Below, piece by piece: positions 5,601 through 56,601 of a stretch of 64,000 nt of DNA (positions within the stretch are counted from its first letter, which is position 1; each line of letters opens with the position of its first letter). The stretch comes from Candidatus Omnitrophota bacterium (GTDB taxonomy: Bacteria; Omnitrophota; Gorgyraeia; Gygaellales; JBFMHM01), in contig JBFMHM010000001.1 of assembly GCA_040753015.1 (NCBI GenBank), positions 8,193-72,192 on the forward strand. The letters are read 5' to 3'. The notes under the pieces are model-generated. The model was given only the letters and a program-made list of their open reading frames with translations, had not been told where the DNA came from and searched no databases. A program made the translations under genes and the position numbers.

Positions 5601-6868
5601 AAAGACGGATAGCAGTAGCGGGATTTATAATTTTATCTATTTTTATTATTTGTAATTTATGCTTTTCTGCTGACATAACAAGGCAATCAAAGGATGAATT
5701 ATATCAAAATATTGAATTATTCTCTGACGCAATTACTTTAATACAGAGTGATTATGTTGATGAAAAAGCGCCAAAAGACCTTATTTATGGCGCATTGCAA
5801 GGAATGCTTTCTTCGCTTGATCCACACAGTCAATTTCTTACGCCAGATGAATTTAAAGATCTTAAAATTGATACATCCGGAAAATTTGGCGGGCTAGGTA
5901 TTGAACTTGGAATAAAAGATGGGCTTCTGACAATAATAACTCCACTCGAGGATGCGCCTGCCTGGCGCGCCGGCGTAAAAGCAGGAGATCGAATCGTAAA
6001 AATTGATGGCCAATCAACAAGGCAACTAACACTTGATGATGCGGTAAAAAAATTGCGCGGTAAACCGGGAACAGAAGTAACAATCACGGTCTTAAGAGAA
6101 AAGGAAGACAAGTTCCTCGATATTAAAATTGTGCGCGATATTATAAAAATAAAAGATATTAAAGATGCGCAAATTTTAGAAGATAATATTGGCTATATTA
6201 GATTAATTGAATTTAGAGAAAATACGGCTAGAGATTTAAATTCAACTCTTGAGCGGCTCACAAAAGAAGGAATGAATGGCCTAATTCTAGATTTACGCAA
6301 TAACCCCGGCGGGCTACTTGACGCGGCAGTAGATGTAACTAGCGAATTTATCGAGCCGCAAAGAATAATTGTTACAACAAAAGGAAGAATTGAAAGACAG
6401 AATTTAGAACTTAAATCTAATTTTTCGAATCCTTACCTTAGTATGCCTATGGTCGTGCTTATAAATCAAGGTTCTGCTTCTGGAAGCGAAATACTTGCTG
6501 GATGCCTACAAGATTATAAACGCGCAATCATCCTAGGAGAACAAAGTTTTGGTAAAGGATCAGTTCAAACAGTCATACCGCTTCCCGATGGATCAGCGCT
6601 TAGACTTACGACTAGTAAATATTTTACTCCTCTCGGACAAACAATCCATGGCAAAGGCATCACTCCTGATATTATCGTAGAATCAACAGAAGTTGTAACT
6701 GAAAAAGAACAAGAAAATGATATAAAAGAGGAAACATTCAGAAAACTTGACAATAAATCTTCAAAAGAAGAAACTCTCAAACCAAGAGAATATAAATCTG
6801 ATTTTCAGATTAGACAGGCAATCGACCTTATAAAAGGAATCCGTATTTATAAAGAACAGGTAAAATGA
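5597..6868 (+). CDS. ctpA: carboxy-terminal processing (tail-specific) protease, S41 family
   Basis: A signal peptide is followed by a PDZ region (GGLGIELGIKDGLLTIITPLEDAPAWRAGVKAGDRIVKIDGQST). The S41 catalytic region follows (LDLRNNPGGLLDAAVDV...SASGSEILAGCLQD...GEQSFGKGSVQT). Confidence 0.9.
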   Translation: MKRRIAVAGFIILSIFIICNLCFSADITRQSKDELYQNIELFSDAITLIQSDYVDEKAPKDLIYGALQGMLSSLDPHSQFLTPDEFKDLKIDTSGKFGGLGIELGIKDGLLTIITPLEDAPAWRAGVKAGDRIVKIDGQSTRQLTLDDAVKKLRGKPGTEVTITVLREKEDKFLDIKIVRDIIKIKDIKDAQILEDNIGYIRLIEFRENTARDLNSTLERLTKEGMNGLILDLRNNPGGLLDAAVDVTSEFIEPQRIIVTTKGRIERQNLELKSNFSNPYLSMPMVVLINQGSASGSEILAGCLQDYKRAIILGEQSFGKGSVQTVIPLPDGSALRLTTSKYFTPLGQTIHGKGITPDIIVESTEVVTEKEQENDIKEETFRKLDNKSSKEETLKPREYKSDFQIRQAIDLIKGIRIYKEQVK

Positions 6869-34297: not shown

Positions 34298-37200
34298 ATG
34301 ATTAAACGTATATTTATCTTATTATTGGTAGGGATTTTTTGTTTTAACCACTTATGTTATGGTTTTCAAAACATAAGTGCCTCGAAGCGCGTAACACTTT
34401 CGGGGCCAACATTATTAGGCATTGATTTAAATGGTAGAGACGCGCTGCAGTGCGTCTCTACGGGTATCCAATTCAATCTAAACATCCCCAAAGGCACTAT
34501 TCTTAATCTAGACCAACGTAACAACCTTAAAACCAACATAAACTACTTTCTAACAGCTCTAACCATACAAGACTCTGAATTCTGGGTTAACCTAAACCCA
34601 AACCAGCCTAACAGGCTTACAGGAACAAATATTGCCTACACAGACATGGGCAAGCATCTATTACTCCTAGACCTAAAGCTTAAGAAAGACACAACCTTTG
34701 CATTGTTTCCCGGATTATCACAAGGAGCCACAACATACTGGGAACGTGTGTTTGCTAAAGCTAAAGCTTTAGCAAAATCAAATATCAAATATCAAAAATC
34801 AAATATACAAACTAAAAATCAAAAAGAAGAACAAAACCGAAGAACCGAAGAACTGACGAACAGTCGAACTGTCTCTATCCCCACAACCTTCCGTGTCTGG
34901 ATAGTTCCAGACAAGGCAGAAGTATACGAAGATGGCAAAGGTAGCTGTGTAATAACCAAATCAACATTGAAAGTGTTACTGGAAAGTGAGTATCTACAAC
35001 TCCCCCAGACCCCCTCTTTACCAAAGAGGGGGATAAAGGGGGAGTTTGATAACAACCAAGAGTTACAATCCTACTGTGAATCGCAGCTAAAAGAACTAAT
35101 ACTTCCTAACCTAACACATAAAGTAAACCATGATCCAAGCTACGAGCCACTAAGACAGATATACAATGCAATTATTCTTGCGAAGTGGTTTAAAGCCAAT
35201 GCTTTAAACAGCAAGAATAATAATTACCAATTACCAAATCCCAATGTCAAATCAATTACTAATGACCAATCAACCAATAAAAACCAATTCGAACAGATCA
35301 TTAATTCTAATAATTTAAAGGGGTTAATATCTAAGGATCCAATAACAAAAGAACAAATCTTTGCTGCCTACTTAGACTCAGTAAAACAAGGCGAATACCA
35401 TCTTACCAAGACTAACTACAATGAAGAGCTGAAGGCTAATATTAGGAGAAGTTATGTGAGCGGGGGAGCAGAGTTTACAGCTATAGCTTTAACAGTTGAC
35501 CCAACTGCGACAAGCAAGGCAGGTGCACTTGCAACAGATAATTTAGGAGCAGCAGTTACATTAACAGATAGTCAAAATCAATCAATAAATGTAGCTATAA
35601 AAACTGATTTTGATAGTTCTAACGCAATGGATGTAACTAGTCGAGTAGAGCCGCGATTAATCGCGTCTCTACAAGGTGATATTAAAATATTTGTTTGTCC
35701 ATCTTTAAGTCAATTTGATAACCAAGATAATTTTTCTCTCATTGCTCACGCAGGCAGGGGTGGAGTAAGGGTAGTAGATGGAGTTACCCATAAGCATACC
35801 TTGCGTCAAATATATCTATCCCCTAAACAATTTGAGCTTGTGCAAGGCTTAACCCAAGAAGCCAAAGAACAATTCTGGAAACATGAAATAGCACATCTTG
35901 AACATCCGGAGATGAGCGAAGAAGAGGTGCAAGCGGTTGCGCCGACGGATAAGGTAAGGGAAGAACTCATTGATCCTGATTTAAGAAAATTACTAGAAGC
36001 AGAAAAGGTTCTAAGCATAGAAGAAATAGATCTTTCCGAAGCCTACGTATATGCTGCTGATGACATTGCAGCTATTGCTCAAAACAAACCCGAGCTTGCC
36101 GATAAAGCTCTTGCCGTCTTAGAAAACATCCTAATAAAAACCATCCTAATCCTAAACAGAGAAGAATTAGATCTTTGCGAAGCCTACGTATATGCTGCTA
36201 ATGCCATTGCAGTTATTGCTCAAAACAAACCCGAGCTTATCCGTGAAAGTACCCTCGCTGTTTTAAAAAACATCTTAAACAGCGAAAAATTACATACTTC
36301 CGCCTACGTATATGCTGCTAATGCCATTGCAGCTTACTATGCAAAAGTAAATAAACCTATCCCAGCGGCAGCGCTAAAGGCCCTTCGTCTTCGCTACATA
36401 CGGTTTACCGATCGTGGCATTAGTTTTCATGATGCATCTGCCTTTGCCGAAGGTTTACTTAAAACAGCTTCTCCAGTAACTCTTAAGCCTTTACCCGAGG
36501 CTCTGCCCAAGAAAGAAGCTATAGATTTAAACAGTATCCCTAAACAAGATAACCTCGATGATTTGTTAAAAGATTATACTTTTGTCCGCGCTCAAGGAAG
36601 AACATTAATCTACAAACACAAAACAACAGGTAAATTCTTAGCCTTAAAGCTACTTAAAAAAGATGAAAGTCCAGCAGAACTTACTCATGAAAGCAATATG
36701 TTCGAATACTTTAACAAACATAGGCAAACATTGGGATTACAATCAATCTTTCCTATGTCTATGGTTCTTAACTCTGAGGGTGATAAAGTGTTAAGTGTGG
36801 TTAATTTGCCTCGAGATGCATTAGCTGATTTATCTGTTTCGGTTGAAAAAACAAAGCAATGCTATACAGTTATGGCATATACTACAACTAGCTTTGATTA
36901 CTTTACGTATCTTGATGATCCTGTTTTAAGTAAAGAAGAATTTAATCAAGCAACTGAAAAATCTGTACATGACTTATTTGCTCTCGCAAGTTACGGAATT
37001 ATTCATACTGCATTACTAAGTATTTTTCATACCGTAGAGCAGGATAAAGATAGGCAAGATGCGGGTAAGTATATTTGGATGACAAGTATAATTAGAAAGT
37101 TGACTACAGGTACAGGTAGACTAGAAAATTGGTTAATTGCTGCAAAATACCCTAATTTAAGGCGATCCGGCTTAGCTGATCTAGCTGACATAACTACTCT

Positions 37201-40200
37201 TGATGAATTAATAACTGATCCAAACCATCTTGGAAGCATTCATTTATCCGAAGCAAGAGAATTCTATAATAATCAAGAAGTATTAAAACGCGTATTTCTT
37301 GCAAATTACATAGGAGATTATCTATTGACCTTTGCTTTAATTACAGGTTCGCGATTACATAAACGCAATGAATTTAATTGGCAAGACCCAGAACAATTAG
37401 CCAAGTTTATGCAGGAATTATTTACTCAAGCATTTACTGTAAGTAGATCCCAAGAACAAGCCAATACTGTAGCTAAAGCAATTGACTGGGCTCGTCTTGC
37501 CAGACAAATGAGCTATTTTATGTCAGGGGCGTATGTAGCTGATTTTAGCCCAAAAAACCCACACAGAAATATTCCAGTTGGAATGTTTGAAGGCGAAGAA
37601 ATTTGCTCACTAGGTTCTTTTGACGAAAGTCTTTGGTCAGAAGTTTTTGGTTGGACAAGCCTTGTCCAAGATAATCCTGAAGATAATCCATCAGCGCTTG
37701 GCCCCTTTAACGGCCCTTTTCCATTAACTGAACTGGTTAAAGCATTGTATGTTTATGCAAGCTTACTTGCTACAGATACACAGACTACAGAAGAACAAAC
37801 TGCTGACACCACCATTGCCTCAACAGGCGAGAAGGGTGCAACGCGAGCTGAACACGAGGTATATCATAAACAAGGTAAATTTGAAGAAGTAATTACTGAT
37901 ATTGCTAAAAAAATTGAAGCAGAAAAAAGAGCTGATGGTAAATATGACTTACGCGCTAAAGTTCAAGAAAAAGGTGGTAGTATTCAAAAAATATTTAGCC
38001 AATTACGCATTGAAAATGATGGAATACTTGTAATTATTGACATTCGTTTTCATAGAGACCATGCCGGCAGAAACGAATTCGCGGTCTATGCCCGAAGTGA
38101 AGCTAAAGCTCAACACGAGCTAAGTGAATTACGCGACTGGCGAGATTTTGCAATTGAACAAAACATTGCCACTTTAGAAGATATACAACAAGGCTTACTT
38201 GGAACTAAACTAAGAGAATGGATGAATGATGGAGCCATTCAAGATGCAGAACGCGCCCATCGCAAAAGCTTAATTGAAGAAAAAAGCAAAGCCTTTCATA
38301 GAAAAGCACTTGAGATTGAGGTAAAATCTGATTTCGAAGATATCGAAGAGCCAGGTTACAAAGCTGTTACATTTATCCTTCCAGAAGCGACAGATGGCCA
38401 AGGTGATTTTATGGATTTACTTTCTACGGCAAGGGTATTTCAAAAATCAAATCCTACTAAAAAAGTAAGAATAGCGCTAGAAAGAGCCTCTGCTTATAAA
38501 AAACTTACTAAATTGTTTCCTGATTTTGATCCAGAAAAAATTAGCAATACAGTAGATGACATAGTAGTAATTAATGCTGAACAAGACCCAACTTTTATAG
38601 ATAGCCTTTTGTGTAATAAAGTAAGTATTATTCTTTTATCAGCAGATAAATCACCACCGGCTTTAGGTTTATCAGCAGTTAATATTTATCTGGAAGAACC
38701 TGGTGCTTCAAAAAGAATATATCTGCCGACTAATTTAAAACGCGGAGAAGTTTATAAAGATAAACAAGGGCGCTTACATATTGTTTATACCACTGGTTTT
38801 AGCACAGATTCTTTAGGTATGGTTATAGATAAAACTTTAAAACAAAAGATGCAAACTGCAGGTAACTCAAAGCAAAACCTATTACATTCTTTAGCTCAAG
38901 AAAAACCCGGCCTTCAATTACCAGCTGATACCATAGATTCCAAATGGGGATTTGTTTATTATAATAGTTCTCATGTTGAAGTTGTTTATAGTAGTTTTGG
39001 ATATTTTTCTTTTTTATATCAAGCGTTAAAAAATGGGAATATTGATAAAGGACAAAAAATTACAATATTTGACTTTAGCGATACCGTTGATTCCTGTGAT
39101 GGAGTGCGTAACTATGATGCTTATAAAGCTTTTACCCATATTTTTCCTGACGGCAAGATAATAGTGGGAGAAAAATTTCCTAATGTTAGAGTTGTTCATG
39201 TCTCTATGGCATCACATAATTTATTCTTGAGATTTATGTATATGGCAGAGCTGCCTATATTAGTTACAGGTACAAGAAGTTTAACAGAGGCAATCGAATT
39301 AGGCAAACCCTTTGTTTATGACTTAATGAATTGGAAAGTCGGCCTTGTGCAGGGCATGGTTGAGCAGGCAATTCGTCATATGCCTTTGGACCAAGCATTA
39401 ATAATCGCGGCTTGTTTAAATGGCTACCCTGCAATAGACGAACAAGAAAAATATACGAGATTACTTACATTATACAGACAATTAAGAACGCAAATCCCAC
39501 TTGTAAAGTCACCCGATGATATAGGTTTAGTGCTAAATCAATTTGCAGAAAATAATGGGTTAGATAGGAATAAATTTGGCTATGCATTTTGGGAACCTCT
39601 TAAAAGTGTTACCGGCCCCGAAATAACTGAAGAAGAATTAGTTGCATTAAAAATTTGTTGGATTATGCTAGGTGGTTTAAGAAGCATTCACTTAAAACAT
39701 AGTCCCAGGATTTTATATGATTCTATTTATCAAGAAGCATTTAGAGCTTTGACAGAAGTATTAGCAAATTTACCTGCGTTAGAGGATAATTTAGCGCAGC
39801 AAATAACTACATTAGTTGATGCTTATAACCAAGATGAGCAAGAGGCACTTAGAATTTTACGAACAAATGTTGATGCCGCTGTTGGCCAAAAAGAAGACGA
39901 AATTGACTTTATTATCTCAAGTGATGGAGGCGTAGCTGATAAAGATGTTTCGTTGCTTCCTCCCAAGTACGACGGAGAGCGATTTAGCCCGCAGACTATC
40001 TATGATTTTGGCGCAGGTTTATCTCCTCTAGAAAGACAGCACTTAAGGCGAAGCTTGGTTAGGTTAACGGCTCAACTAAGAAATAAGGATGTAGCCGTGC
40101 GAACTCAAGCAGTAACTGCTTTGATAAATCTTTTCGCCAATGAATTTGGGCTTTTTTCAAGAGGTATTCTTCAACAGGCATATCAGAATCAAGAACAATT

Positions 40201-43200
40201 AACTAATCTTTTTATACTTATGCGCCCTCTTTTAGAAAATACTCTCTTAAATGGAAGCGAAGCAGATGATGCCTATCAAAACTTAGCTAATCAACTTGCT
40301 AATCCAACCACTGGTTCTAGTCAAGAAACTATCCTAAGGACTGCCAATAACCTTGGTTGGAATTTAATCTTTATTAATGATAGGCCAATATTTGTTTTAA
40401 CTGATGAAGCGCATAATTACGCCACATCAACTGCTTCAGATGAGGTGCGCCTTGTTAATCTTTTGCCAGAAGGAATAGTTTTATCAAATGCACGTCCAGT
40501 ACAGGCAAGTGAGGTTACGCAACCTGATGTTAGCGCACCAGTAGTTTCGCAGCCAGTGCAATTACCACAGCCACAGCAGCCAACTACTGCTTTAGTTGTA
40601 CCTAACCAAGTACAAGGAGTACTTGTTAAACCGCGTACAATTGCCGGAGTAATTGCTAAGTTTAAGCCTATAAATTATCAACCAACACTAAACAGGCCGC
40701 TTATTCAAAGAATTGCAATACTTATTAACGAAGGCGATTATAACCAAGCAGCTACGCTTATCCAAAACAACCATACAAGAGCACAAGCGCAGGCACTCTT
40801 AACCGAGCTTTTAATTGCACACCCAGGTCCGCAAACATTCGAGTTACTAGCTTATTTAGATATAGGTCTAGCAACAGATAGTTTTATGCAGGCATTTGCT
40901 ACAACTAATGGCGAACTAAATTTAGAACGCATAAACAATATTATATTTATGCTCTCACTCATACAAAGAGACAGAATTTATCTTTGGCAAGCGCAGTCGG
41001 ATTTACGTTCCGCTGGAACGCTTAGGGAGAGCCTGCCATTTTCTTGTTTTATTCTTGCCAGAATGAGCCAAGAGAGGGAATATCAGCCATTTGTTGCAAG
41101 AATGAGAAGGCTTATTGATGATATTGTGCCACTTGGAACAGTTGCTGGGTTAAACCGCATAGAAACATTACTTAAAATTGTTAATGATTTAGCACCAGAA
41201 GCTCTAGTTGCACAAGAACAAACATATTCCTTCGCAAGAAGCATTGATGAAATTGATGAAATTGTTGCTAGCTTAAATAGCGCAGGAGATGATTTAAGCG
41301 CTGTTTCAGATTATTGTATTCTAGGTCGTTCGCCAACCAATGTACTTCGTGCGGTTAAAAAATATGCAGCAGCCAAGATTCTTCCCTGGCGAGCAGTTTT
41401 AGTTAGATTACTTTCAGCGCAATCACCAGAAGCTATTGCAACATTTATTGCTGTGCTTGACCAGCAGCAAACAGCTTGGTATCGAAATGATTTAGGCGAT
41501 GAATTAGAAAGAGTAGAGTTTTTCTCTACCTTGCTTGCAGAAATTGACAGAGAACTTGCCATAAACACTATAGACGTGCTTGTTACTGACCAAATACTTT
41601 ATCATCAAGACTCACGCAGATTAGCAGAGCGTATTCTTCTTGGCCCGGCAATTGAAGCAATAGATGCAATGGTTGCAATACACACTGAACTTTGCAAAAG
41701 AGATAGCCGTTATAATACAGAGTTTGAATTCCAGCTAACCGGTGTGTTACTTGCTGAAGACTTGACTAAAGGCCAAAGACAGCAAGCAGTTAAAAGATGT
41801 GCTCAAATCATCGAAACTACTGATGATAATTGGCATAAACTAAAAGCTGACTTCCGTGTACTTATTGCAATGCGTACCGACTCAGGTCAAGCCCGCAAAG
41901 ATGCAATCGCTGAGTTGGGGAGGTTAGGCACACCCGATGCTGTGGATGTGTTGCTTGGGCTACTAATACAAAGGAGCATACCTAGATATAGTTTACTAAA
42001 AGCATTGGCTAGGGGTTTAACTGTGGACCGAAAAACAGATGAGGATAAAATTTTTCAAGACGGTCTTAAAACAATTCATTCAGGTAGATATATTAAAGAA
42101 GCTATAAATGCGCTCTCTCAGTTAGCACGAACAGATTTGGATAGTTTTACAGCGCCTCAAGTATTTTTTATTAAATGGCTTGGTATGTATCTGAATTATC
42201 AGAATATAAATGGCGCTTATCTTCCAAATGATTCGGATAGGGTTGGCATTGTTAATATTTATATTATTCTAGGATTCCGCGGGCATAGTTATGCAGTATC
42301 AAAGTTTATTCAAGAGTGTGAGGGATATGATAAACTTCCTGATCTTCCACGAGATGATTTAAGGGGATGGTTTAATCCAGAAATCGAACAATGGGTTGTT
42401 TGGCGAAGAGATTTAATTGAAAAATTAGCTGATCCTAGATTAGATCAAGCTAATTGGCAATTTGAACAAAACCAATTTTTTCTTCTTCTAGAAGCAATTG
42501 GCGTGCCAAAAGAAGTTTCACGTAATATACGTCAACTATGTATTAGTGAAGATAAAAATGAAACAATAGCTGCAATCCAAGCCCTTGGCGAAAGTAAGCA
42601 TTCCGCTTCTGTTGAATTGCTCATCGATTGTTGTTTACCAATTGAACAACGTTCTATGTCTATTACTCACTTGAAATATAGAGATAAAGATGGCCGAAGA
42701 GGTCTTGACAACGATATTTGTCAAGCCGCGATTATAGCATTAGGTAAAATCGCTGACCCTCGCGCAGTTGAGCCTTTGATTGAATGTTTGAAGGATACGA
42801 ACAAATATGTTCGTCGCAACGCTGTCGAAGCTCTTGCTAAAATTGGCATGCCGGCATTGCCTGCATTAGAAGCAACTTTACGCCGTCCAGAGTATAATAA
42901 AGTTATTGCTGAAATACAAAGAATAATTGATCGTATTCGCGCTAAAAATCCTAGCATAACCGAGCATCAATTTTTCGCTCCGGTTTTATCGTCCGCTTTA
43001 AAACAAGAACTTATCGCTAAATTAAATGGCTCGGATTTATTAGATGCCCCTATTGCTGAACGGACAAAGCAAGTAATTAGAATATTAACTAGCGATAAAT
43101 ATTATGATGAGCAATCATTTAACTTGCTCATTGCCGCTTTAAATGAAATTAAAGCTGGAATACGCATTAACTTAGAAGGCCTGCATATTGCCGGTGATTA

Positions 43201-43405
43201 TAAAGAAATATTAGAGCTAGTGCTTAAGCCGCTTACCGATGACCTTGCCGCGGCTAATGCAAGCGATCCAAATACAACATTAGAAGGAATGGAAGTATTA
43301 GCCAAAGCACAATCTGTATCGTCTAAAGGGCAAGGCGCAAAAACCGCGCCTGTTACAACCGGCGGCATTGACCTATCGCAAATACAGATTACGATGATTG
43401 GATAA
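34298..43405 (+). CDS. giant secreted multidomain protein (3035 aa) with HEAT/PBS-lyase-type repeats
   Basis: An uninterrupted 9.1-kb ORF with an N-terminal signal peptide ([22 protein letters not shown]). HEAT_2/PBS-type repeats lie near aa 570-680 ([20 protein letters not shown] x3). More lie in the C-terminal part ([40 protein letters not shown]). A Pro/Gln-rich linker is present. I could not assign the central domains. Confidence 0.8.
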   Translation: [3035 protein letters not shown]

Positions 43406-51761: not shown

Positions 51762-51793
51762 CCAATTTTTTCTAACGAAAAAATTGCCTAAAA

Positions 51794-51918
51794 GGCTGCA
51801 AGTTTAAATCTGATAAGATTTAAACTGTTATGCAGGTTACACTGAACCGTGATTTTTACGGGGCAGTGTTAAGTCATAGCGAAAATCAACCCCGCCTCTA
51901 AACAGAGGCGGGGTTTTT
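51794..51918 (+). ncRNA. structured RNA element, copy A of a tandem pair, ending in intrinsic terminator (CCCCGCCTCT-aaac-AGAGGCGGGG-TTTTT)
   Basis: It is paralogous to copy B. P1 is CTGCA/TGCAG, the P2 hairpin is GTTTAAATC-tgataa-GATTTAAAC, and the motif GGTTACACTGAACCGT is conserved. Confidence 0.45.
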
Positions 51919-51973
51919 ATTTGCTTGCAATGTCTATTATCCCGAATTTTGCAATAGCAAAATTCGCCCCTGA

Positions 51974-52109
51974 GGGCCGCAAGATTAAATCTCGTCGAGA
52001 TTTAATCTGTTCTGCGGGTTACCCTGGACCGTCAGCGAAGCGCTTTGACTGGTTCGGTGGTTAATACAAAAAAACCAACCCCATCTCTAGAAATAGGGAT
52101 GGGGTTTTT
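51974..52109 (+). ncRNA. structured RNA element, copy B of the tandem pair, ending in intrinsic terminator (CCCCATCTCTAG-aaa-TAGGGATGGGG-TTTTT)
   Basis: P1 is CCGCA/TGCGG and P2 is AGATTAAATCTC-gtcga-GAGATTTAATCT. Both are compensatory relative to copy A. The conserved motif is GGTTACCCTGGACCGT. Confidence 0.45.
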
Positions 52110-52138
52110 CTTTACCAACATTCTACCCAAAAATTTTC

Positions 52139-52167
52139 TTGACACCTGTATAAACATACAGTATTAT
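52139..52167 (+). promoter_or_regulatory. promoter TTGACA-17-TATTAT with LexA (SOS) box CTGTATAAACATACAG in the spacer (52146-52161)
   Basis: This is the gamma-proteobacterial-type CTGT-N8-ACAG palindrome, flanked by A...TA. It overlaps the promoter of the gene encoding a LexA domain, which is the classic autoregulatory layout. Confidence 0.7.
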
Positions 52168-52174
52168 AACGTTC

Positions 52175-53680
52175 ATGATACGCCAAAGAAAAAAAAATAT
52201 AAAACTTACTAAACGTCAGGAACAAATTTTTAATTTTATTGTTAAAAACATAAAAAACTTCGGTTTCCCGCCTTCTATTTCAGAGTTTCAAAAAAAATTC
52301 TCTTTTAAATCACCTAATGCCGTTCAAAGCCATCTCAATAGCCTAGAAAAAAAAGGTTTTATTTCTCGACATCCGCATAAATCACGCGCTATAGAAATTT
52401 TAATTAATCAAAAAACGATGCTAAATAACTCTAATTCTACAATGGATATCCCCATTGTTGGCCGTGTTGCGGCCGGCGCGCCAATCATAGCCGAAGAAAA
52501 TATCGAAGGAACGCTCGCGGTCGATAAAACGCTTGTTAAAGATCCAAATAAAACTTTTGCTTTACAGGTAAGAGGCGACAGTATGATTAATGCAGGAATC
52601 CTGAATAATGACTTTGTAGTTGTCCAACAACAATCTACTGCGGATGAGGGTGAAATCGTCGTTGCTCTTATTGGCGAAGAAGCCACAGTAAAAAGATTTT
52701 ATAAAGAAAAAGATTGCATTAAATTAATTGCCGAAAATGAGAATTTTGCGCCAATAATAATAACGCCAAAAGATAATGATATTCAAATATTGGGAAAAGT
52801 AAAAGGTGTTATAAGGAAATTTAAAACAGATAACACCATCGCACCAATTAAACAAGCTGCACGCTCGCCTAACAAAGAAAAGAGCGATGTCTTTTTTAAA
52901 TCAGAAAACATAAAAATTTTGAATAATGATATACTTAACACTGAAAATATTTTACCATCTAGTGTTGATTTAATAATTACCTCTCCGCCATATAATCTTG
53001 ATATTAAATATGGTGCTCATGACGACAAACTGTCTTATGAAGAATACCTCAAATTTAGTAAAGAGTGGATGGCTAGATGTTTTGAGCTTGCCAAAGACGA
53101 TGGACGCTTTTGTTTAAATATCCCGCTTGATAAAAATAAGAACGGACAACAAAGCGTTTGCGCTGATATTACATCAATTGCAAAACATATAGGCTGGCAT
53201 TATCATTCTACGATAATTTGGAATGAAGGTAATATTTCTAGACGTACAGCATGGGGTTCATGGCTTAGCGCTTCAGCCCCCTATGTCATTGCGCCTGTTG
53301 AAGTAATTGTAGTTTTTTATAAAAAATTTTGGAAAAAACAAAAACCAGGAAAATCTGATATAACAAAAGAAGAATTTATGGAATGGACTAATGGTGTTTG
53401 GTCTTTTAACGGCGAAAGCAAAAAAAGAATAGGGCACCCTGCGCCATTCCCTGTGGAGCTGCCAAAAAGATGTATTAAACTCTTTAGCTATACTACTGAT
53501 ACCATCTTAGATCCATTTCTAGGGAGCGGATCAACTTTACTAGCTTGTATTAAAGAAAAAAGGGGCGGCATAGGCGTAGATATAGATAGACAATATTGTG
53601 ATTTAGCAAAAAGAAGGATAATGAATTATAATGCCCAGTGTAATTTTAACTTTAAGGAGACAGTATGTCAGGAGAAATAG
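52175..53680 (+). CDS. LexA repressor (wHTH + S24 autopeptidase) fused in-frame to a beta-class DNA methyltransferase (N4-cytosine/N6-adenine type)
   Basis: Residues 1-216 are a complete LexA. The DNA-binding domain is FPPSISEFQKKFSFKSPNAVQSHLNSLEKKGFI, the cleavage site is VAA-GAP, and the catalytic Ser and Lys are at GDSM and VKRF with E. coli-like spacing. Residues 260-501 are an MTase with motif IV (SPPY) preceding motif I (DPFLGSGST). There is no stop codon or separate start between the two parts. Confidence 0.8.
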   Translation: MIRQRKKNIKLTKRQEQIFNFIVKNIKNFGFPPSISEFQKKFSFKSPNAVQSHLNSLEKKGFISRHPHKSRAIEILINQKTMLNNSNSTMDIPIVGRVAAGAPIIAEENIEGTLAVDKTLVKDPNKTFALQVRGDSMINAGILNNDFVVVQQQSTADEGEIVVALIGEEATVKRFYKEKDCIKLIAENENFAPIIITPKDNDIQILGKVKGVIRKFKTDNTIAPIKQAARSPNKEKSDVFFKSENIKILNNDILNTENILPSSVDLIITSPPYNLDIKYGAHDDKLSYEEYLKFSKEWMARCFELAKDDGRFCLNIPLDKNKNGQQSVCADITSIAKHIGWHYHSTIIWNEGNISRRTAWGSWLSASAPYVIAPVEVIVVFYKKFWKKQKPGKSDITKEEFMEWTNGVWSFNGESKKRIGHPAPFPVELPKRCIKLFSYTTDTILDPFLGSGSTLLACIKEKRGGIGVDIDRQYCDLAKRRIMNYNAQCNFNFKETVCQEK

Positions 53681-54249
53681 TCCAATCCAATTTGATAATG
53701 GAATATTTTAAAAATCATCCCAACCAAGATATTAAACATCCTGAGATTGTTGATTGGGTAACAGCTGAATACAATAAAAGAACTGGTAAGGTTTTTCGAG
53801 ATCCAGATAGAGCTATTAGAAAGCTATCCCAAGAAGGACAATTAATAAAAATTAAAAAAGGTGTGTATAAGTATGACCCTTCTTTTATTAAAAATCGAAA
53901 ATTAAAAGATTTTACAACTGAACAAAAGAAAGAAATATTTAAACGAGATGCTTATAAATGCGTGGTTTGTGGCCGCGGAATTAATGACGGAGTAGAAATT
54001 CACGCTGATCATATAAAGCCAAGAGATTTAGGCGGTGAATCAAAAATAGAAAATGGTCAAACATTGTGTGCCCAGCATAACTTTCAAAAGAAAAATTATA
54101 AACAGACAGAAACAGGAAAGAAGATGTTTATAAGACTTTGTGAATTAGCAAAAAAATCTAAAGATAAAAAGTTGCAAAAATTTTGTGAAGAAGTATTAAC
54201 AGTCTATGAAAAAAATAATATTAACGGTCACATAAGATGGAATAAATAG
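53665..54249 (+). CDS. HNH endonuclease with N-terminal winged-helix-like domain (putative restriction endonuclease partner of the MTase)
   Basis: The HNH motif is CVVCGRGINDGVEIHADHIKPRDLGGESKIENGQTLCAQHN. The gene overlaps the upstream ORF by 16 nt with a GGAGA RBS, which indicates translational coupling. Confidence 0.7.
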   Translation: MSGEIVQSNLIMEYFKNHPNQDIKHPEIVDWVTAEYNKRTGKVFRDPDRAIRKLSQEGQLIKIKKGVYKYDPSFIKNRKLKDFTTEQKKEIFKRDAYKCVVCGRGINDGVEIHADHIKPRDLGGESKIENGQTLCAQHNFQKKNYKQTETGKKMFIRLCELAKKSKDKKLQKFCEEVLTVYEKNNINGHIRWNK

Positions 54250-54263
54250 AGGAATATAGACAT

Positions 54264-54896
54264 ATGGGTATTTTATATCTTGATTTGTTATTAATAATAA
54301 TCGGGATCTCTGCATTGTTGGGAGAAAATAAGATTGATAAAATTGGAACTTTTTTCTATTTAATGTTTATATTCGGTTTTTTCTTTACTCTCGGGGAAGC
54401 TTTAACAAAAATTGTTACAAGAAAAGACTATAATTTGTGGATGATATTTTTTATTTTTACCTTTTTTATAATTATAAATTTTAGGCAAGTTAAAAACTTT
54501 ACCACTTTCGTTGTTTGTAGTAAGATAATAACGTTAAATTACGATTTAGAAACAGAAGAATTTAAAAATAATAAGAAAATAAAAATAGCTACTCCCGAAG
54601 GCAGGTGTATTATTGCTAAAGAAAATGGACTGTATCGCATATATTTGCCTCGAAAGATTGTAGATGTAAATCTTTTTTATACTTCTTATGATGCTAACGG
54701 AATACACAAAGGTCGTATTTTATGGATTAAGGATGTGGATTTTACATTTAAAGATAGGTATATAGAATCATATCACGTTTTAAACGAAAGTGCTAATAAT
54801 GGAAAAGGAAGGCATCTAATAAAATATTACTATCGGTTGAATATTTTTGAGCTTTTAAAAAAATCCAGTAGTTTTTGGAGAAGCTATTTAGAATAA
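54264..54896 (+). CDS. hypothetical membrane protein (3 N-terminal TM helices + soluble C-terminal domain)
   Basis: Hydrophobicity only. No motifs. Confidence 0.4.
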   Translation: MGILYLDLLLIIIGISALLGENKIDKIGTFFYLMFIFGFFFTLGEALTKIVTRKDYNLWMIFFIFTFFIIINFRQVKNFTTFVVCSKIITLNYDLETEEFKNNKKIKIATPEGRCIIAKENGLYRIYLPRKIVDVNLFYTSYDANGIHKGRILWIKDVDFTFKDRYIESYHVLNESANNGKGRHLIKYYYRLNIFELLKKSSSFWRSYLE

Positions 54897-54948
54897 TCCC
54901 AGACCATAATCAGAATTCCGAAGACACAGCAGTTAATTAACCCTTAAA

Positions 54949-56088
54949 ATGAAAAAGCTCTTGGCAATTTTTGCACTAATCCTCACGATAACAACAAACT
55001 CTTTCGCCTCGGAAATTTGGTATCAGGCTCGGGTAAGAGATGCGAGTGATCGGAGTTATGAGAAAGAAGTTATTGCGCTACTTGATTCTGCCAAACAATC
55101 AATTACAATCTCAATGTACGTCATCAAACCGCATGAAATAAAAAACCACCCAGTAAATCTTCTGCTTAATGATCTTTTAGAGGCTAGAGGCCGAGGGGTT
55201 GAAGTAAATATCTACCTAAATGCCAGGTTTAACAATGTCTTAGAATCTGGCGATATTACGCGTAATCCTATTTATGCCACACTAGAACAAAAAGGCGCAA
55301 AAATATACTTTGTATCAAGCGCAACCATGCTTCACGATAAACTTATTATCATTGACGAGCGCTACATCGTAGAAGGTAGCACAAATTGGAGCGTTGCCGC
55401 TCTAAAAAATAATCTTGAATCAGCAACAATCATAGATTCACCTGAGCTTGCCAAAAGAAAATTATCTAGAATCAGCCAATTACCGTTAGAAGGCCAAGCA
55501 AAGCCAACCACCAAAGAAGAAAAGCCAATAGTTGCCAATTTACCACCAGAAATAGAAATAAAAGCTTGCCTTATTACCGATAAAAACTTTTTCTCTAAAA
55601 TGGTGAGAAACCGAGACGAACATACAATTGATCTATATCTTTATTTAATTGGGTTATCACAAGCCTATAACTCAAATGAATTCTTTATAGATCTTGAAAC
55701 AATACCACTCGATATTTCGCTTCCTAAAAAATGGCCCGAAACTGCTAAACGCCGCCAAATCATAAAATTATTAAAGAAGCTTTCGAAAAACTATCATCTT
55801 ATACAAGTAGAATTTTATCCCGCTAAAGATAGCTGGGTAAAATTAATAAACTTACCTGGCGAATCATTTCTTATCCCCAATACTTATTTTACTGAAGTTT
55901 ATATTAATCGCTTTAGCGCAAAAGCTCAACTGCTCATCCTGACAGATTTTCTTTTAAAGAAAGAGGGAAAAAGTATTTATTCTACATCTCTAGCTGATCT
56001 TAGCCGACTCCTTAACCTTAACCCCAAGATAATCTCCAAGGCGTTGTCAGAAGTAAAAAACTACACAGAGAATCAAAGAATTGACTAA
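54949..56088 (+). CDS. secreted phospholipase-D-superfamily (single HKD motif, Nuc-like) protein with uncharacterised C-terminal domain
   Basis: A signal peptide MKKLLAIFALILTITTNSFA is followed by the HKD motif region LHDKLIIIDERYIVEGSTNWS. Confidence 0.65.
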   Translation: MKKLLAIFALILTITTNSFASEIWYQARVRDASDRSYEKEVIALLDSAKQSITISMYVIKPHEIKNHPVNLLLNDLLEARGRGVEVNIYLNARFNNVLESGDITRNPIYATLEQKGAKIYFVSSATMLHDKLIIIDERYIVEGSTNWSVAALKNNLESATIIDSPELAKRKLSRISQLPLEGQAKPTTKEEKPIVANLPPEIEIKACLITDKNFFSKMVRNRDEHTIDLYLYLIGLSQAYNSNEFFIDLETIPLDISLPKKWPETAKRRQIIKLLKKLSKNYHLIQVEFYPAKDSWVKLINLPGESFLIPNTYFTEVYINRFSAKAQLLILTDFLLKKEGKSIYSTSLADLSRLLNLNPKIISKALSEVKNYTENQRID

Positions 56089-56115
56089 AATTAAAAAAAG
56101 CTTATAATTAAACTA

Positions 56116-56601
56116 ATGTTAGATTATTTAGGCATATTTAAAGAATTAAACAAAAGAAAAATAAAGTATATTGTCGTAGGGGGAATGGCAATAAACCTAT
56201 ATGGCATCCCACGAATGACCTATGACTTAGATTTCATACTTTTACTCGAAAATAACAATATTAAAAAATTTATTACTTTAATGAAAAAATGGGGCTTTAA
56301 ACCAAAAGTGCCCGTAAATATAATGGATTTTTCAAATAAAGACAAAAGAAATGACTGGATAAAGAATAAAAATATGAAGGCCTTCAATCTAGTAAATCTG
56401 AATTGGGGAATTGCAGAAATTGACATAATTATCGATAGCCCAGTTAATTACGAAAAAGCTTATAAGAACATTAAATACATATCCTTACGGAATACACAGA
56501 TTCCAACTATAGGCATAGACGATCTTATCAAAATGAAGCATAAAACCGGAAGAAAACAAGATTTAGCCGATGTCAAAACTTTAATGAAATTGAAAAGATG
56601 A
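56116..56601 (+). CDS. minimal nucleotidyltransferase-fold protein (AbiEii/DUF-type NTase)
   Basis: The sequence YIVVGGMAINLYGIPRMTYDLDFIL has the GG...G..R.T.DLD nucleotidyltransferase signature. Confidence 0.45.
   Translation: MLDYLGIFKELNKRKIKYIVVGGMAINLYGIPRMTYDLDFILLLENNNIKKFITLMKKWGFKPKVPVNIMDFSNKDKRNDWIKNKNMKAFNLVNLNWGIAEIDIIIDSPVNYEKAYKNIKYISLRNTQIPTIGIDDLIKMKHKTGRKQDLADVKTLMKLKR

Follow-up and report, generated by a model that had tools for sequence, protein, structure and literature searches.

In this analysis, we describe an operon in which the gene for a complete LexA repressor runs without interruption into a DNA methyltransferase (MTase), the resulting 501-aa fusion being followed by an overlapping gene for an HNH nuclease and the two genes lying behind a promoter whose spacer is filled by a predicted LexA operator. 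From this anatomy, it is very probable that we are dealing with a restriction-modification (R-M) operon that has an autoregulated LexA at its head or fused to it. We also regard as likely the fuller chain of events, in which an R-M operon was captured by an autoregulated lexA and LexA would serve as its cleavable, SOS-responsive controller. As judged from sequence comparisons, the fusion represents one extreme of a broader tendency, with the lexA genes of Omnitrophota heading varied R-M operons and the LexA of CPR bacteria being fused to several unrelated MTases.

Architecture of the operon

The features of the operon are given below, with positions counted in the window, i.e., the whole 64-kb stretch of DNA that was analysed.

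51888..51915, + strand: first of two intrinsic terminators, insulating the operon from groEL (12-bp stem with 8 GC pairs, then a T run)
52077..52106, + strand: second intrinsic terminator, directly 5' of the promoter (13-bp stem, then a T run)
52139..52167, + strand: sigma70-type promoter (TTGACA at 52139-52144, 17-nt spacer, TATTAT at 52162-52167; 11/12 matches)
52146..52161, + strand: predicted LexA operator CTGTATAAACATACAG (CTGT-N8-ACAG), inside the promoter spacer; 13 nt separate it from the ATG
52175..53680, + strand: LexA::DNA methyltransferase fusion gene, 501 aa (ORF list, Pfam, NCBIfam)
52202..52390, + strand: LexA winged-HTH DNA-binding domain, residues 10-72 (PF01726, LexA_DNA_bind, 81.8 bits)
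52451..52801, + strand: S24 autoprotease and dimerisation domain, residues 93-209 (PF00717, Peptidase_S24, 122.5 bits)
52472-52477, + strand: scissile bond Ala100-Gly101 in the S24 domain (GRVAA|GAPII)
52580-52582, + strand: catalytic Ser136 in the S24 domain (GDSM)
52691-52693, + strand: catalytic Lys173 in the S24 domain (VKRF)
52823..52888, + strand: linker, residues 217-238, weakly conserved, with indels among fusions (pLDDT <50)
52889..53677, + strand: beta-class amino-methyltransferase, residues 239-501 (PF01555, N6_N4_Mtase, at residues 264-479, 162.5 bits)
52982-52993, + strand: MTase motif IV, SPPY, residues 270-273
53510-53536, + strand: MTase motif I, DPFLGSGST, residues 446-454
53654..53659, + strand: Shine-Dalgarno sequence AAGGAG of the HNH gene, within the 3' end of the fusion gene and 5 nt before the HNH ATG
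53665..54249, + strand: HNH restriction-endonuclease candidate, 194 aa (PF01844, 34.7 bits; HNH_5, 29 bits)
53959-54114, + strand: HNH core, residues 99-150 (motif HADH...N...HN)

The fusion reading frame (52175-53680) contains no stop and, from codon 2 to M82, no in-frame ATG, GTG or TTG. Its LexA half scores 229.9 bits against the NCBIfam lexA equivalog TIGR00498 over residues 10-216 (cutoff 110.95) and is matched by the PDB LexA 8s7g over residues 9-215 (E = 9e-43). Regarding the C-terminal half, SPPY precedes DPFLGSGST, which is the beta-class order (IV-TRD-I circular permutation), the PF01555 match spans the full model and the PADLOC type II MTase model PDLC03353 matches over its full length (317.8 bits). 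The SPPY motif, together with PDB relatives that include the N4-cytosine MTases 8s9n and 1boo, indicates that the enzyme is probably N4-cytosine specific (m4C). The first-pass annotation had proposed a single reading frame holding a complete LexA and then a beta-class MTase; this frame is present, the profiles LexA_DNA_bind, Peptidase_S24 and N6_N4_Mtase were all recovered from it, and every motif quoted at the time (FSFKSPNAVQSHLNSLEKKGFI, GRVAA|GAPII, GDSM, VKRF, SPPY and DPFLGSGST) was found. The E. coli-like spacing of the catalytic residues, as then described, holds from Ser to Lys (37 in both proteins) but not from Gly to Ser (35 here versus 34 in E. coli LexA, whose residues are numbered A84/G85, S119 and K156), and the linker, put at about 40 aa, proved to be of about 20 aa (217-238), stand-alone homologous MTases aligning from residue ~233. 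This linker has a mean identity of 24% among CPR fusions. An AlphaFold2 model of the fusion is of high confidence in the LexA half only, the MTase half being poor because the alignment consisted of only 17 sequences. GC3 is ~0.26 throughout, in both halves of the fusion as in the genome, and is thus uninformative on recent transfer.

The TTGACA/TATTAT pair is the best sigma70-like site between 51.7 and 57.2 kb, and its 17-nt spacer is filled by CTGTATAAACATACAG. This LexA box, already reported in the promoter by the earlier annotation and confirmed at 52146-52161, is the sole perfect CTGT-N8-ACAG of the 64-kb window (0.29 expected per window). Such a palindromic operator over the operon's own promoter would correspond to the arrangement of autoregulated lexA genes. 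Indeed, the same promoter layout is found at L001, L007, L008, L040-L042, L123 and L124, the promoter-operator being kept in nine related Omnitrophota-type loci; homologous boxes are present at all Omnitrophota-type lexA loci, and a box identical to that of the window lies 5' of the stand-alone lexA in L040. A second, weaker promoter-like site (53603-53632) lies just 5' of the HNH gene, so that the nuclease is perhaps not fully LexA-controlled. The groEL-lexA intergenic region gave no Rfam match above the gathering score. The neighbours of the operon include a DrmC-like PLD nuclease and an AbiEii-like NTase, both of defence type.

The HNH gene and its partner methyltransferase

The HNH gene overlaps the fusion gene by 16 nt (53665-54249 versus 52175-53680), as had been noticed at first reading. 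Of the winged-helix plus HNH nuclease proposed for its product, the HNH part stands on the PF01844 match, the winged helix being weakly indicated (AbiEi_4, 18.6 bits, below cutoff). The protein matches PADLOC REase_II models weakly (24.7 bits), and no close characterised relative among restriction endonucleases (REases) was found for it. The MTase and HNH genes are kept as a pair in L001, L002-L006, L038, L039, L129 and L133. Their adjacency, seen in more than nine loci, takes overlapping, spaced and convergent forms, and the two proteins diverge in parallel across loci (78-86% versus 54-64%). Free-standing M+HNH cassettes, with the same gene order and overlapping or nearly overlapping genes, occur in L038 and L039 and also on the viral contigs L129 and L133; their MTases are 75-79% and their HNH proteins 78-85% identical to those of the fusion operon, and they have neither the LexA moiety nor a CTGT-N8-ACAG box in their promoter. 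The R-M-like nature of the module initially suggested is supported, the MTase and the HNH protein forming a conserved two-gene cassette typical of type II R-M.

Recurrence of LexA-MTase fusions

A second fusion accompanied by its HNH gene was found in an independent sample, with the same 501-aa architecture, the same 16-nt overlap and 79%/86% identity, and fusion and HNH genes at ~50% identity occur in CPR loci with differing neighbourhoods. A search for homologous fusions, as the first-pass annotation had advised, returned more than 85 fusion clusters in CPR/Patescibacteria from NCBI, JGI, ENA and Logan assemblies and, at the level of 50% identity, five distinct representatives. Ala-Gly, Ser, Lys, SPPY and DPFxGSG are invariant in 87/87 aligned fusions. 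This recurrence in independent assemblies, with all the catalytic residues kept, supports a genuine fusion under selection. In databases, these proteins are usually named either "transcriptional repressor LexA" or "site-specific DNA-methyltransferase". The architecture, announced as undescribed, is thus abundant in public databases rather than rare; it has nonetheless found no describing paper, LexA-MTase fusions and lexA-R-M operons being undescribed in the full-text literature searched and in a 2025 R-M review. They may be mentioned by Sanchez-Osuna, Barbe and Erill in 2017 (Environ Microbiol 19:3465), a study reportedly devoted to the Patescibacteria SOS network. CCGAA-N6-CCGAA repeats were also noticed in our material and are of interest for comparison with the LexA motif of CPR.

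Linkage of unfused lexA genes to R-M systems

In 9/10 Omnitrophota-type lexA loci, an MTase either is fused to LexA or follows in tight coupling, versus 0/21 controls (Fisher p = 5e-7), the controls including Firmicutes/gut LexAs of 45-50% identity that came from a metagenome scan with the LexA half and are not members of the clade. The R-M systems found downstream are of different types. Indeed, behind the closest unfused lexA genes of Omnitrophota (59-74% identity, same promoter-operator) lie, at a distance of -4 to +25 nt, MTases belonging to other R-M systems, their partners being REases of the AlwI, BsaWI or PabI families or a D12+N6_N4 MTase pair. L007, L040 and L124 represent such unfused lexA-M-R operons. 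Beyond lexA itself, no synteny was detected between the window and the closest stand-alone lexA loci.

Independent origins of the fusions

In the LexA tree, the window's fusion and P0001 are placed with 30/30 sampled stand-alone LexAs and apart from all CPR fusions (99/100 bootstraps), and in the MTase tree the window, P0001 and the stand-alone MTases are separated from the CPR fusions (100/100 bootstraps). The LexA half clusters with stand-alone LexAs of the Omnitrophota/Atribacteria type and has ordinary LexAs of ~210 aa as its nearest relatives, and the MTase and HNH protein of the window group with the free-standing M+HNH cassettes. On the evidence of these domain trees, the window's fusion and that of CPR had separate origins. 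Moreover, in CPR, protein comparisons place LexA in fusion with at least five further MTase lineages: P0264, P0277, P0323, P0356 and locus L014 carry fusions with different MTase lineages, the identity among the MTases of P0264, P0277, P0323, P0356 and P0062 being 24-44% and the L014 MTase being ~25% identical to that of the window. Within the CPR fusions, MTase cores are 85-97% identical versus 40-58% for LexA. This may reflect recent transfer of M-HNH cassettes or, equally well, a slow-evolving MTase in an old fusion, since identity among the HNH proteins of three CPR loci is just ~50%.

Proposed mechanism and alternative explanations

In the reading that we favour, an autoregulated lexA of Omnitrophota would have lost its stop codon and taken up, at its 3' end, a type II R-M cassette composed of an SPPY MTase, probably m4C, and a small HNH nuclease, so that LexA and MTase became a single polypeptide. 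The whole operon would be transcribed from a single sigma70 promoter and, the spacer of this promoter being the LexA operator, the fusion protein would both protect the genome and repress its own synthesis as well as that of the nuclease. Repressor and methylase would be produced 1:1, with the methylase translated ahead of the nuclease, which would tie nuclease expression to the prior presence of the methylase. Owing to the strict conservation of the Ala-Gly site and of the Ser/Lys dyad, we infer that RecA*-stimulated self-cleavage could remove the DNA-binding domain and derepress the operon, resulting in an SOS-inducible R-M system. On balance, we lean towards SOS inducibility through cleavage, with less assurance than for the anatomy of the operon. 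Against this, switching on a nuclease while the DNA is damaged seems hazardous, with no obvious gain for the cell.

The LexA moiety might instead be a paralogue dedicated to R-M control, a separate stand-alone lexA running the SOS regulon, maybe with heterodimers or shared operators, a situation that we consider rather unlikely. The 64-kb window has one operator only, and boxes with one mismatch are about as numerous in it as chance predicts (13 versus 10.2 expected); it hence gives no sign of a wider SOS regulon run by this LexA. Among CPR bacteria, stand-alone and fused LexAs are interleaved at 60-69% identity. A 211-aa stand-alone LexA (P0413) and a 472-aa fusion (P0032) share 61% identity, and only one contig is on record for each, with a length of 69,348 bp and identical sources in both cases. 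One CPR contig thus probably encodes both forms, although their co-location derives solely from the equal 69,348-bp figure, and fused copies may therefore be dedicated paralogues and not the SOS master regulator. However, the LexA half has the full lexA equivalog score (229.9 bits) and ordinary LexAs as its nearest relatives, and the window contains no second lexA or S24 domain. Such a division of labour would alter what else is regulated but leave the working of the operon itself unchanged.

It is improbable, in our opinion, that the operon functions as an SOS-triggered suicide or addiction module, in which the cleaved S24-MTase fragment would be degraded by ClpXP/Lon at the same time as repression of the HNH gene is lifted. 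The ratio of methylase to nuclease would then collapse and the cell's own DNA be cut, leading to abortive infection or to post-segregational killing tied to lexA. In E. coli, the LexA fragments are degraded by ClpXP/Lon and the end of the N-fragment (...GRVAA) is recognised by ClpX; cleavage of the fusion would leave an identical ...GRVAA C-terminus. In addition, the MTase can be made only as a fusion, since it has no internal start codon before M299, and the DrmC-like and AbiEii-like genes adjoin the operon. Derepression would, however, also boost the synthesis of new full-length MTase, the cleaved protein would retain an intact MTase domain, and the unfused lexA-M-R operons (L007, L040 and L124) cannot act in this way, yet exhibit the same linkage.

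More doubtful still is an explanation without any R-M system, according to which the MTase would be an orphan epigenetic regulator brought to LexA sites or their vicinity, with the HNH protein serving as a repair or selfish homing nuclease. Related MTases are indeed solitary on most of the viral contigs found and in L036/L037, and the resemblance of the HNH protein to known REases is weak. Nevertheless, the varied arrangements and parallel divergence of the adjacent MTase and HNH genes in more than nine loci, the full-length match of the MTase to a type II MTase model and the recognisable REases of the AlwI, BsaWI and PabI families in unfused lexA operons all argue for restriction. Finally, an assembly or sequencing artefact, in which a lost stop codon or a frameshift would have merged two separate genes, is effectively refuted and was rejected on recurrence in independent assemblies (the 501-aa architecture at 79% identity in a different sample, the >85 clusters from four sources and the five distinct representatives), NCBI numbering leaving exactly one protein between GroEL (MEW5757898) and HNH (MEW5757900), although the exact 501-aa sequence is missing from the protein collection, where its neighbours are present and where neither the 501-aa form nor an M82-start form was found.

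Comparison with known systems and implications

The timing and dosing of nuclease versus methylase is a classic problem of R-M systems, and the known solutions to this balance are C proteins, promoter methylation, antisense RNA and HTH-MTase fusions. The fusion reported here is best read as resembling the HTH-MTase "regulatory methylases", a cleavable LexA as controller appearing to be new. The class of dual-function regulatory MTases (SsoII/Ecl18kI/EcoRII) has been described (PMC12707154). Like the fusion, enzymes of the M.Ecl18kI, M.SsoII, M.EcoRII and M.MspI type possess an N-terminal DNA-binding domain and a flexible linker, and the fusion has the dual-function features of an N-terminal DNA-binding domain and a predicted operator in the R-M promoter region. 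However, these regulatory MTases are C5-cytosine enzymes with a simple HTH of ~70 aa, devoid of a protease module and not known to receive any signal, and the M and R promoters on which they act overlap or diverge, whereas the fusion combines a full LexA (wHTH and S24) with a beta-class amino-MTase in an operon where M and R are co-directional behind an SOS-box operator. The relation is hence one of analogy and not of membership, because the enzyme is beta-class and not C5, the LexA is complete and there is one promoter.

With LexA itself (TIGR00498) and autoregulated lexA genes, the fusion shares the domain order, the Ala-Gly site, the Ser/Lys dyad and a CTGT-N8-ACAG box over its own promoter. 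Unlike ordinary LexA, it has a 285-aa C-terminal enzymatic extension, and the cargo of its operon is a restriction system instead of repair genes. In C-protein R-M systems such as PvuII, BamHI and Esp1396I, a transcription factor encoded in the operon sets the timing and level of the REase relative to the MTase (PMC2175313; PMC12707154 section 13). These systems thus have in common with the fusion operon a dedicated transcription factor encoded in the R-M operon itself, but C proteins are small HTH activator/repressors encoded by a gene of their own, which bind C-boxes and mostly share a transcript with the REase; neither a cleavage switch nor a connection with DNA damage is known for them. 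Between the operon promoter and the HNH gene, no separate small HTH reading frame was found, the only operator being the LexA box. Repressors that sense DNA damage or a related signal and raise the expression of immune operons also include CapH/CapP of CBASS, in which the repressor is cleaved by a protease, and WYL-type BrxR/PafBC-like regulators. They belong to other protein families, with a regulator that is not fused to the effector and no known use of RecA*/LexA chemistry, whereas in the fusion LexA is joined to the MTase.

The existence of at least two origins (one in Omnitrophota, the rest in CPR, where several different MTases are involved), together with unfused lexA genes standing almost always before R-M systems, argues for selection and not accident. 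Such repeated evolution in ultra-small bacteria suggests that LexA is widely used there as an R-M on/off switch. As a tentative proposal, to which we give slightly less than even chances, LexA may have been repeatedly and independently recruited in Omnitrophota and CPR, two unrelated groups, as a signal-responsive controller of R-M that either heads the operon or is joined in-frame to the methylase, RecA*-triggered cleavage gating restriction immunity or suicide; degradation of the S24-MTase fragment would turn this proposal into R-M-mediated suicide instead of gated immunity. If true, this would constitute a general and previously undescribed regulatory link from SOS to R-M, as well as a natural fusion of a cleavable repressor with an enzyme, by which the amount of enzyme would be signalled to the promoter of its own gene. 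To the known means of balancing nuclease and methylase, a cleavable LexA controller would add a signal input, i.e., DNA damage or phage-induced RecA*, and thereby connect the SOS response to restriction immunity. For comparative genomics of the SOS response, it would mean that hundreds of "LexA" database entries are bifunctional enzymes. Such fusions would also provide a compact natural design for synthetic, damage-inducible and self-reporting enzyme expression, and they bear on the biology of defence islands in uncultivated bacteria with reduced genomes.

The LexA-methyltransferase fusion

The open reading frame at 52175-53680 (+ strand) runs for 501 codons without interruption. Profile searches have recovered from it each of the domains expected by the first-pass annotation, which had described a full LexA and a DNA methyltransferase (MTase) in one ORF, and the motifs lie at the places it had indicated.

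Domains of the fusion protein
residues 10-72: LexA_DNA_bind, 81.8 bits
residues 93-209: Peptidase_S24, 122.5 bits
residues 264-479: N6_N4_Mtase, 162.5 bits

Residues 1-216 score 229.9 bits with the NCBI LexA equivalog model TIGR00498 (cutoff 110.95) and are matched by solved LexA structures (E = 9e-43); by every sequence-level criterion of membership, this half would be classed as a LexA. The protein carries the scissile Ala100-Gly101 bond, Ser136 and Lys173, followed by SPPY (270-273, motif IV) and DPFLGSGST (446-454, motif I), an order which makes the MTase half, a PF01555 enzyme, beta-class. Two details had to be corrected: the linker counts about 20 residues (217-238) instead of about 40, and the Gly-to-Ser distance, said to equal that of E. 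coli LexA, is off by one residue. Regarding the MTase, no in-frame start in the ORF gives a separate complete enzyme, the first Met of this half being M299, so that it can be made only as a fusion.

The fusion is real and recurs in independent assemblies. On the 417-kb contig of the Candidatus Omnitrophota MAG from which the window comes, GroEL is NCBI MEW5757898, while the HNH protein, the ORF after it and the PLD-like protein are MEW5757900, 901 and 902, so that exactly one number remains free for the fusion. The locus L001, from an independent assembly (Logan SRR22387965), encodes a 501-aa fusion 79% identical to that of the window and an HNH protein gene 86% identical, with the 16-nt overlap and the promoter-operator likewise kept. 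Homologous fusions, which the first-pass annotation had suggested seeking, also comprise more than 85 additional 90%-identity clusters (455-504 aa, ~50% identity) sharing the three-domain architecture. The named ones (Vogel-, Portnoy- and Jorgensenbacteria, Paceibacterota) all belong to CPR/Patescibacteria, and database names are 'transcriptional repressor LexA' or 'site-specific DNA-methyltransferase'. Across 87 aligned fusions, the Ala-Gly site, Ser, Lys, SPPY and DPFxGSG(S/T)T are invariant, conservation being lowest in the linker; protease and MTase activities hence both appear to be under purifying selection.

Operon, promoter and surroundings

Features of the operon and of the region 3' of it
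52146-52161: predicted LexA operator CTGTATAAACATACAG, a CTGT-N8-ACAG match
53665-54249, + strand: HNH gene, 194 aa (PF01844, 34.7 bits)
within 54264-56601, + strand: multi-pass membrane ORF, 210 aa, without family match
within 54264-56601, + strand: PLD-like nuclease, 379 aa (PLDc_2 76.9 bits; PADLOC DrmC 55 bits)
within 54264-56601, + strand: DUF6036/AbiEii-like nucleotidyltransferase

The LexA box ascribed earlier to the operon promoter is indeed present: no perfect CTGT-N8-ACAG other than CTGTATAAACATACAG occurs in the 64 kb of the window (0.29 expected), and this one exactly fills the 17-nt spacer of a TTGACA/TATTAT pair, the top sigma70-like promoter across 51.7-57.2 kb. The HNH motif and the 16-nt overlap of its gene with the fusion gene, both previously noted, were likewise found, with AAGGAG 5 nt 5' of the HNH ATG. 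Two strong intrinsic terminators part groEL from the operon promoter, and none was detected on the + strand from 52175 to ~57000. A weaker promoter-like site at 53603-53632, directly 5' of the HNH gene, might allow nuclease expression without LexA control.

The gap between groEL and the promoter holds two tandem paralogous units (51790-51925 and 51968-52116, + strand, ~135-150 nt each). In both, a 5' hairpin and the conserved CTGTTNTGCNGGTTACNCTGNACCGT core are accompanied by a strong intrinsic terminator whose stem carries compensatory changes. The units may represent a pair of small-RNA genes; Rfam gave no family at gathering score, and the 25-nt core has no further copy in the window outside them. 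The region 3' of the HNH gene resembles a defence island, and its genes are absent from L001. Nearly all long ORFs of the window lie on the + strand, including a single ORF of 3035 aa (34298-43405).

A probable restriction-modification cassette and its separate fusions to LexA

In CPR loci with differing neighbours (nusA; nrdD/nrdG; an AAA ATPase and another HNH), the fusion invariably has a 195-200-aa HNH homologue at its side, be it overlapping, 20-nt spaced or convergent. LexA-free pairs occur in L038 and L039 (MTase 75-79%, HNH 78-85% identity to the window's), and the pair is also present on the predicted viral contigs L129 and L133. Given this recurrent pairing and the full-length match of the PADLOC type II MTase model to the MTase half (317.8 bits), we read MTase and HNH as a mobile type II restriction-modification (R-M) cassette. 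Its SPPY motif, like the presence of N4-cytosine MTases among its PDB relatives, suggests that the enzyme makes m4C.

Related MTases (P0308, P0331 and others of 400-500 aa) bear ParB_N or HTH_ParB at their N-terminus, and the family thus appears ready to gain N-terminal DNA-binding partners. Six proteins of 400-424 aa (P0105, P0112, P0115, P0116, P0118, P0120) are S24::MTase variants without the LexA DNA-binding domain, in which the Ala/Ser-Gly site is retained and the MTase is that of the fusions; P0112, on an 11.9-kb contig, has a genuine Met start and hence represents a UmuD-like::MTase architecture.

The LexA half of the window shares 57-74% identity with stand-alone ~210-aa LexAs of Omnitrophota, Atribacteria and Elusimicrobiota, and 30-42% with the LexA halves of CPR fusions. 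In a neighbour-joining tree, it groups, together with the fusion P0001, with 30/30 sampled stand-alone LexAs, all CPR fusions falling outside (bootstrap 99/100). The MTase tree separates the window, P0001 and 28 stand-alone MTases from 31 CPR fusions and six S24-MTase variants (100/100), and the HNH grouping tracks it. The simplest history would be that a free cassette was fused to a native Omnitrophota lexA, apart from the CPR event(s).

An exhaustive search among 50%-identity representatives, with architecture then confirmed with Pfam, added four full-length fusions (P0264, P0277, P0323, P0356). All four combine a CPR-type LexA half (43-71% mutual identity) with an MTase half just 24-44% identical to those of the other three and of the main family, and all retain AAG, GxSM, Lys and SPPY. 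Another fusion, in the Paceibacterota locus L014 (2375-7242), has an MTase ~25% identical to the window's. It is flanked on one side by a GmrSD-type (type IV) restriction gene and on the other by an unknown ORF of 208 aa, convergent and overlapping, beyond which comes a NERD nuclease gene. Counting the main family, these four and L014, the MTase lineages found in LexA fusions number at least six. The surroundings of L014 form another defence-island context.

lexA-headed operons without fusion

The close unfused lexA relatives inspected share the promoter-operator cTTGACA(a/c)CTGTA-N6-TACAGTAT..., the box of L040 being identical to that of the window, and an MTase gene lies at -4 to +25 nt after lexA. 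The R-M systems differ.

Genes after lexA in unfused loci
L007, L008: D12 MTase, AlwI-family REase, N6_N4 MTase
L040: 452-aa MTase, BsaWI-family REase
L041: two MTase-like genes
L042, L123: D12 MTase, N6_N4 MTase, two unknown ORFs
L124/L125: N6_N4 MTase, PabI-family REase, Eco57I-like protein

Counting distinct loci, with one genome per species for the controls, an MTase is fused to or tightly coupled 3' of lexA in 9/10 Omnitrophota-type loci versus 0/21 loci of other phyla (Fisher p = 5e-7, merely indicative since loci are phylogenetically non-independent). The sole exception, L043/L044, has no downstream MTase and a degenerate box; in every coupled case the first gene after lexA is the MTase. 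From locus to locus lexA and its operator stay the same and the R-M cargo changes, and the fusion is an extreme form of this wider linkage.

CTGT-N8-ACAG is absent from the CPR fusion loci. Direct repeats CCGAA-N6-CCGAA lie beside a TATAAT-like element, at most 60 nt from the fusion start, in L002, L006 (two inverted copies) and L014, and are absent from L004. They are candidates for the LexA operator of CPR, which would then have the unusual form of a direct repeat. A 12-mer, AAGTTATCCACA, containing the perfect DnaA-box consensus TTATCCACA, is present in three diverged CPR loci (L002 ~5940-5960; L004 ~5905-5920 and ~2480-2495; L006 ~5905-5920), in each of them 60-100 nt 5' of the fusion start and in L004 also 5' of nrdD. 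Stand-alone CPR LexAs (~200-215 aa, on long contigs) interleave with fused ones at 60-69% identity. Five of them (P0393, P0398, P0413, P0427, P0461) have a common ~14-aa C-terminal tail, GF.SF.KKL.WMK, extending past the normal LexA end, where fusions have their linker.

Proposed mechanism

The arrangement is conserved: an SOS-type operator occupies the spacer of a single promoter, repressor, autoprotease and MTase all appear intact within one polypeptide, and a nuclease gene is translationally linked 3'. The fusion would dimerise via its S24 domain and repress its own operon, which would couple repressor to MTase 1:1 and place the MTase before the nuclease in a naive cell; other systems leave this task to C proteins or to HTH-MTase 'regulatory methylases' (PMC12707154, PMC2760811, PMC3978073, PMC2175313). 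RecA* on single-stranded DNA would trigger Ala100-Gly101 cleavage, freeing the DNA-binding domain and derepressing both genes, and would thereby render the R-M system SOS-inducible. That fusions of independent origin keep site and dyad invariant is the main argument that cleavage matters. Comparative evidence supports the module and its LexA control well, and its SOS induction we infer.

If the S24-MTase fragment is stable, induction would strengthen immunity. If it is degraded, damage would favour the nuclease and turn the operon into a suicide or addiction module; by analogy, E. coli LexA cleavage fragments are degraded, and the N-fragment of the fusion would end ...GRVAA, as E. coli's does. 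The fused LexA may also be an R-M-dedicated paralogue sharing operators with a master LexA. The stand-alone CPR LexA P0413 (211 aa) and the fusion P0032 (472 aa) are 61% identical and are each found, from the same sources, on exactly one 69,348-bp contig, probably the same one; with the interleaved CPR LexAs, this pair indicates that some genomes may hold both forms. Within the 64 kb of the window, neither a second lexA nor an excess of degenerate LexA boxes was found, and paralogue status would likely leave the working of the operon itself unchanged.

Relation to known systems

As a regulatory design, the fusion would work like dual-function MTase repressors, by analogy and not homology: these pair a C5 MTase with a short HTH, lack a protease and have competing promoters, whereas that of the window joins a beta-class enzyme to a full LexA. 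The paper by Sanchez-Osuna, Barbe and Erill from 2017 on the Patescibacteria SOS network is the likeliest to have noticed such fusions. In the full-text literature searched, that paper not being covered, no LexA-MTase fusion or lexA-headed R-M operon was found described, and LexA is nowhere mentioned in a 2025 review of R-M biology (PMC12707154) some 270,000 characters long. The architecture is not unique, LexA::MTase proteins being plentiful in public databases. The wider pattern is of more interest than the fusion itself: in two lineages of ultra-small bacteria, R-M systems have recruited LexA repeatedly and convergently.
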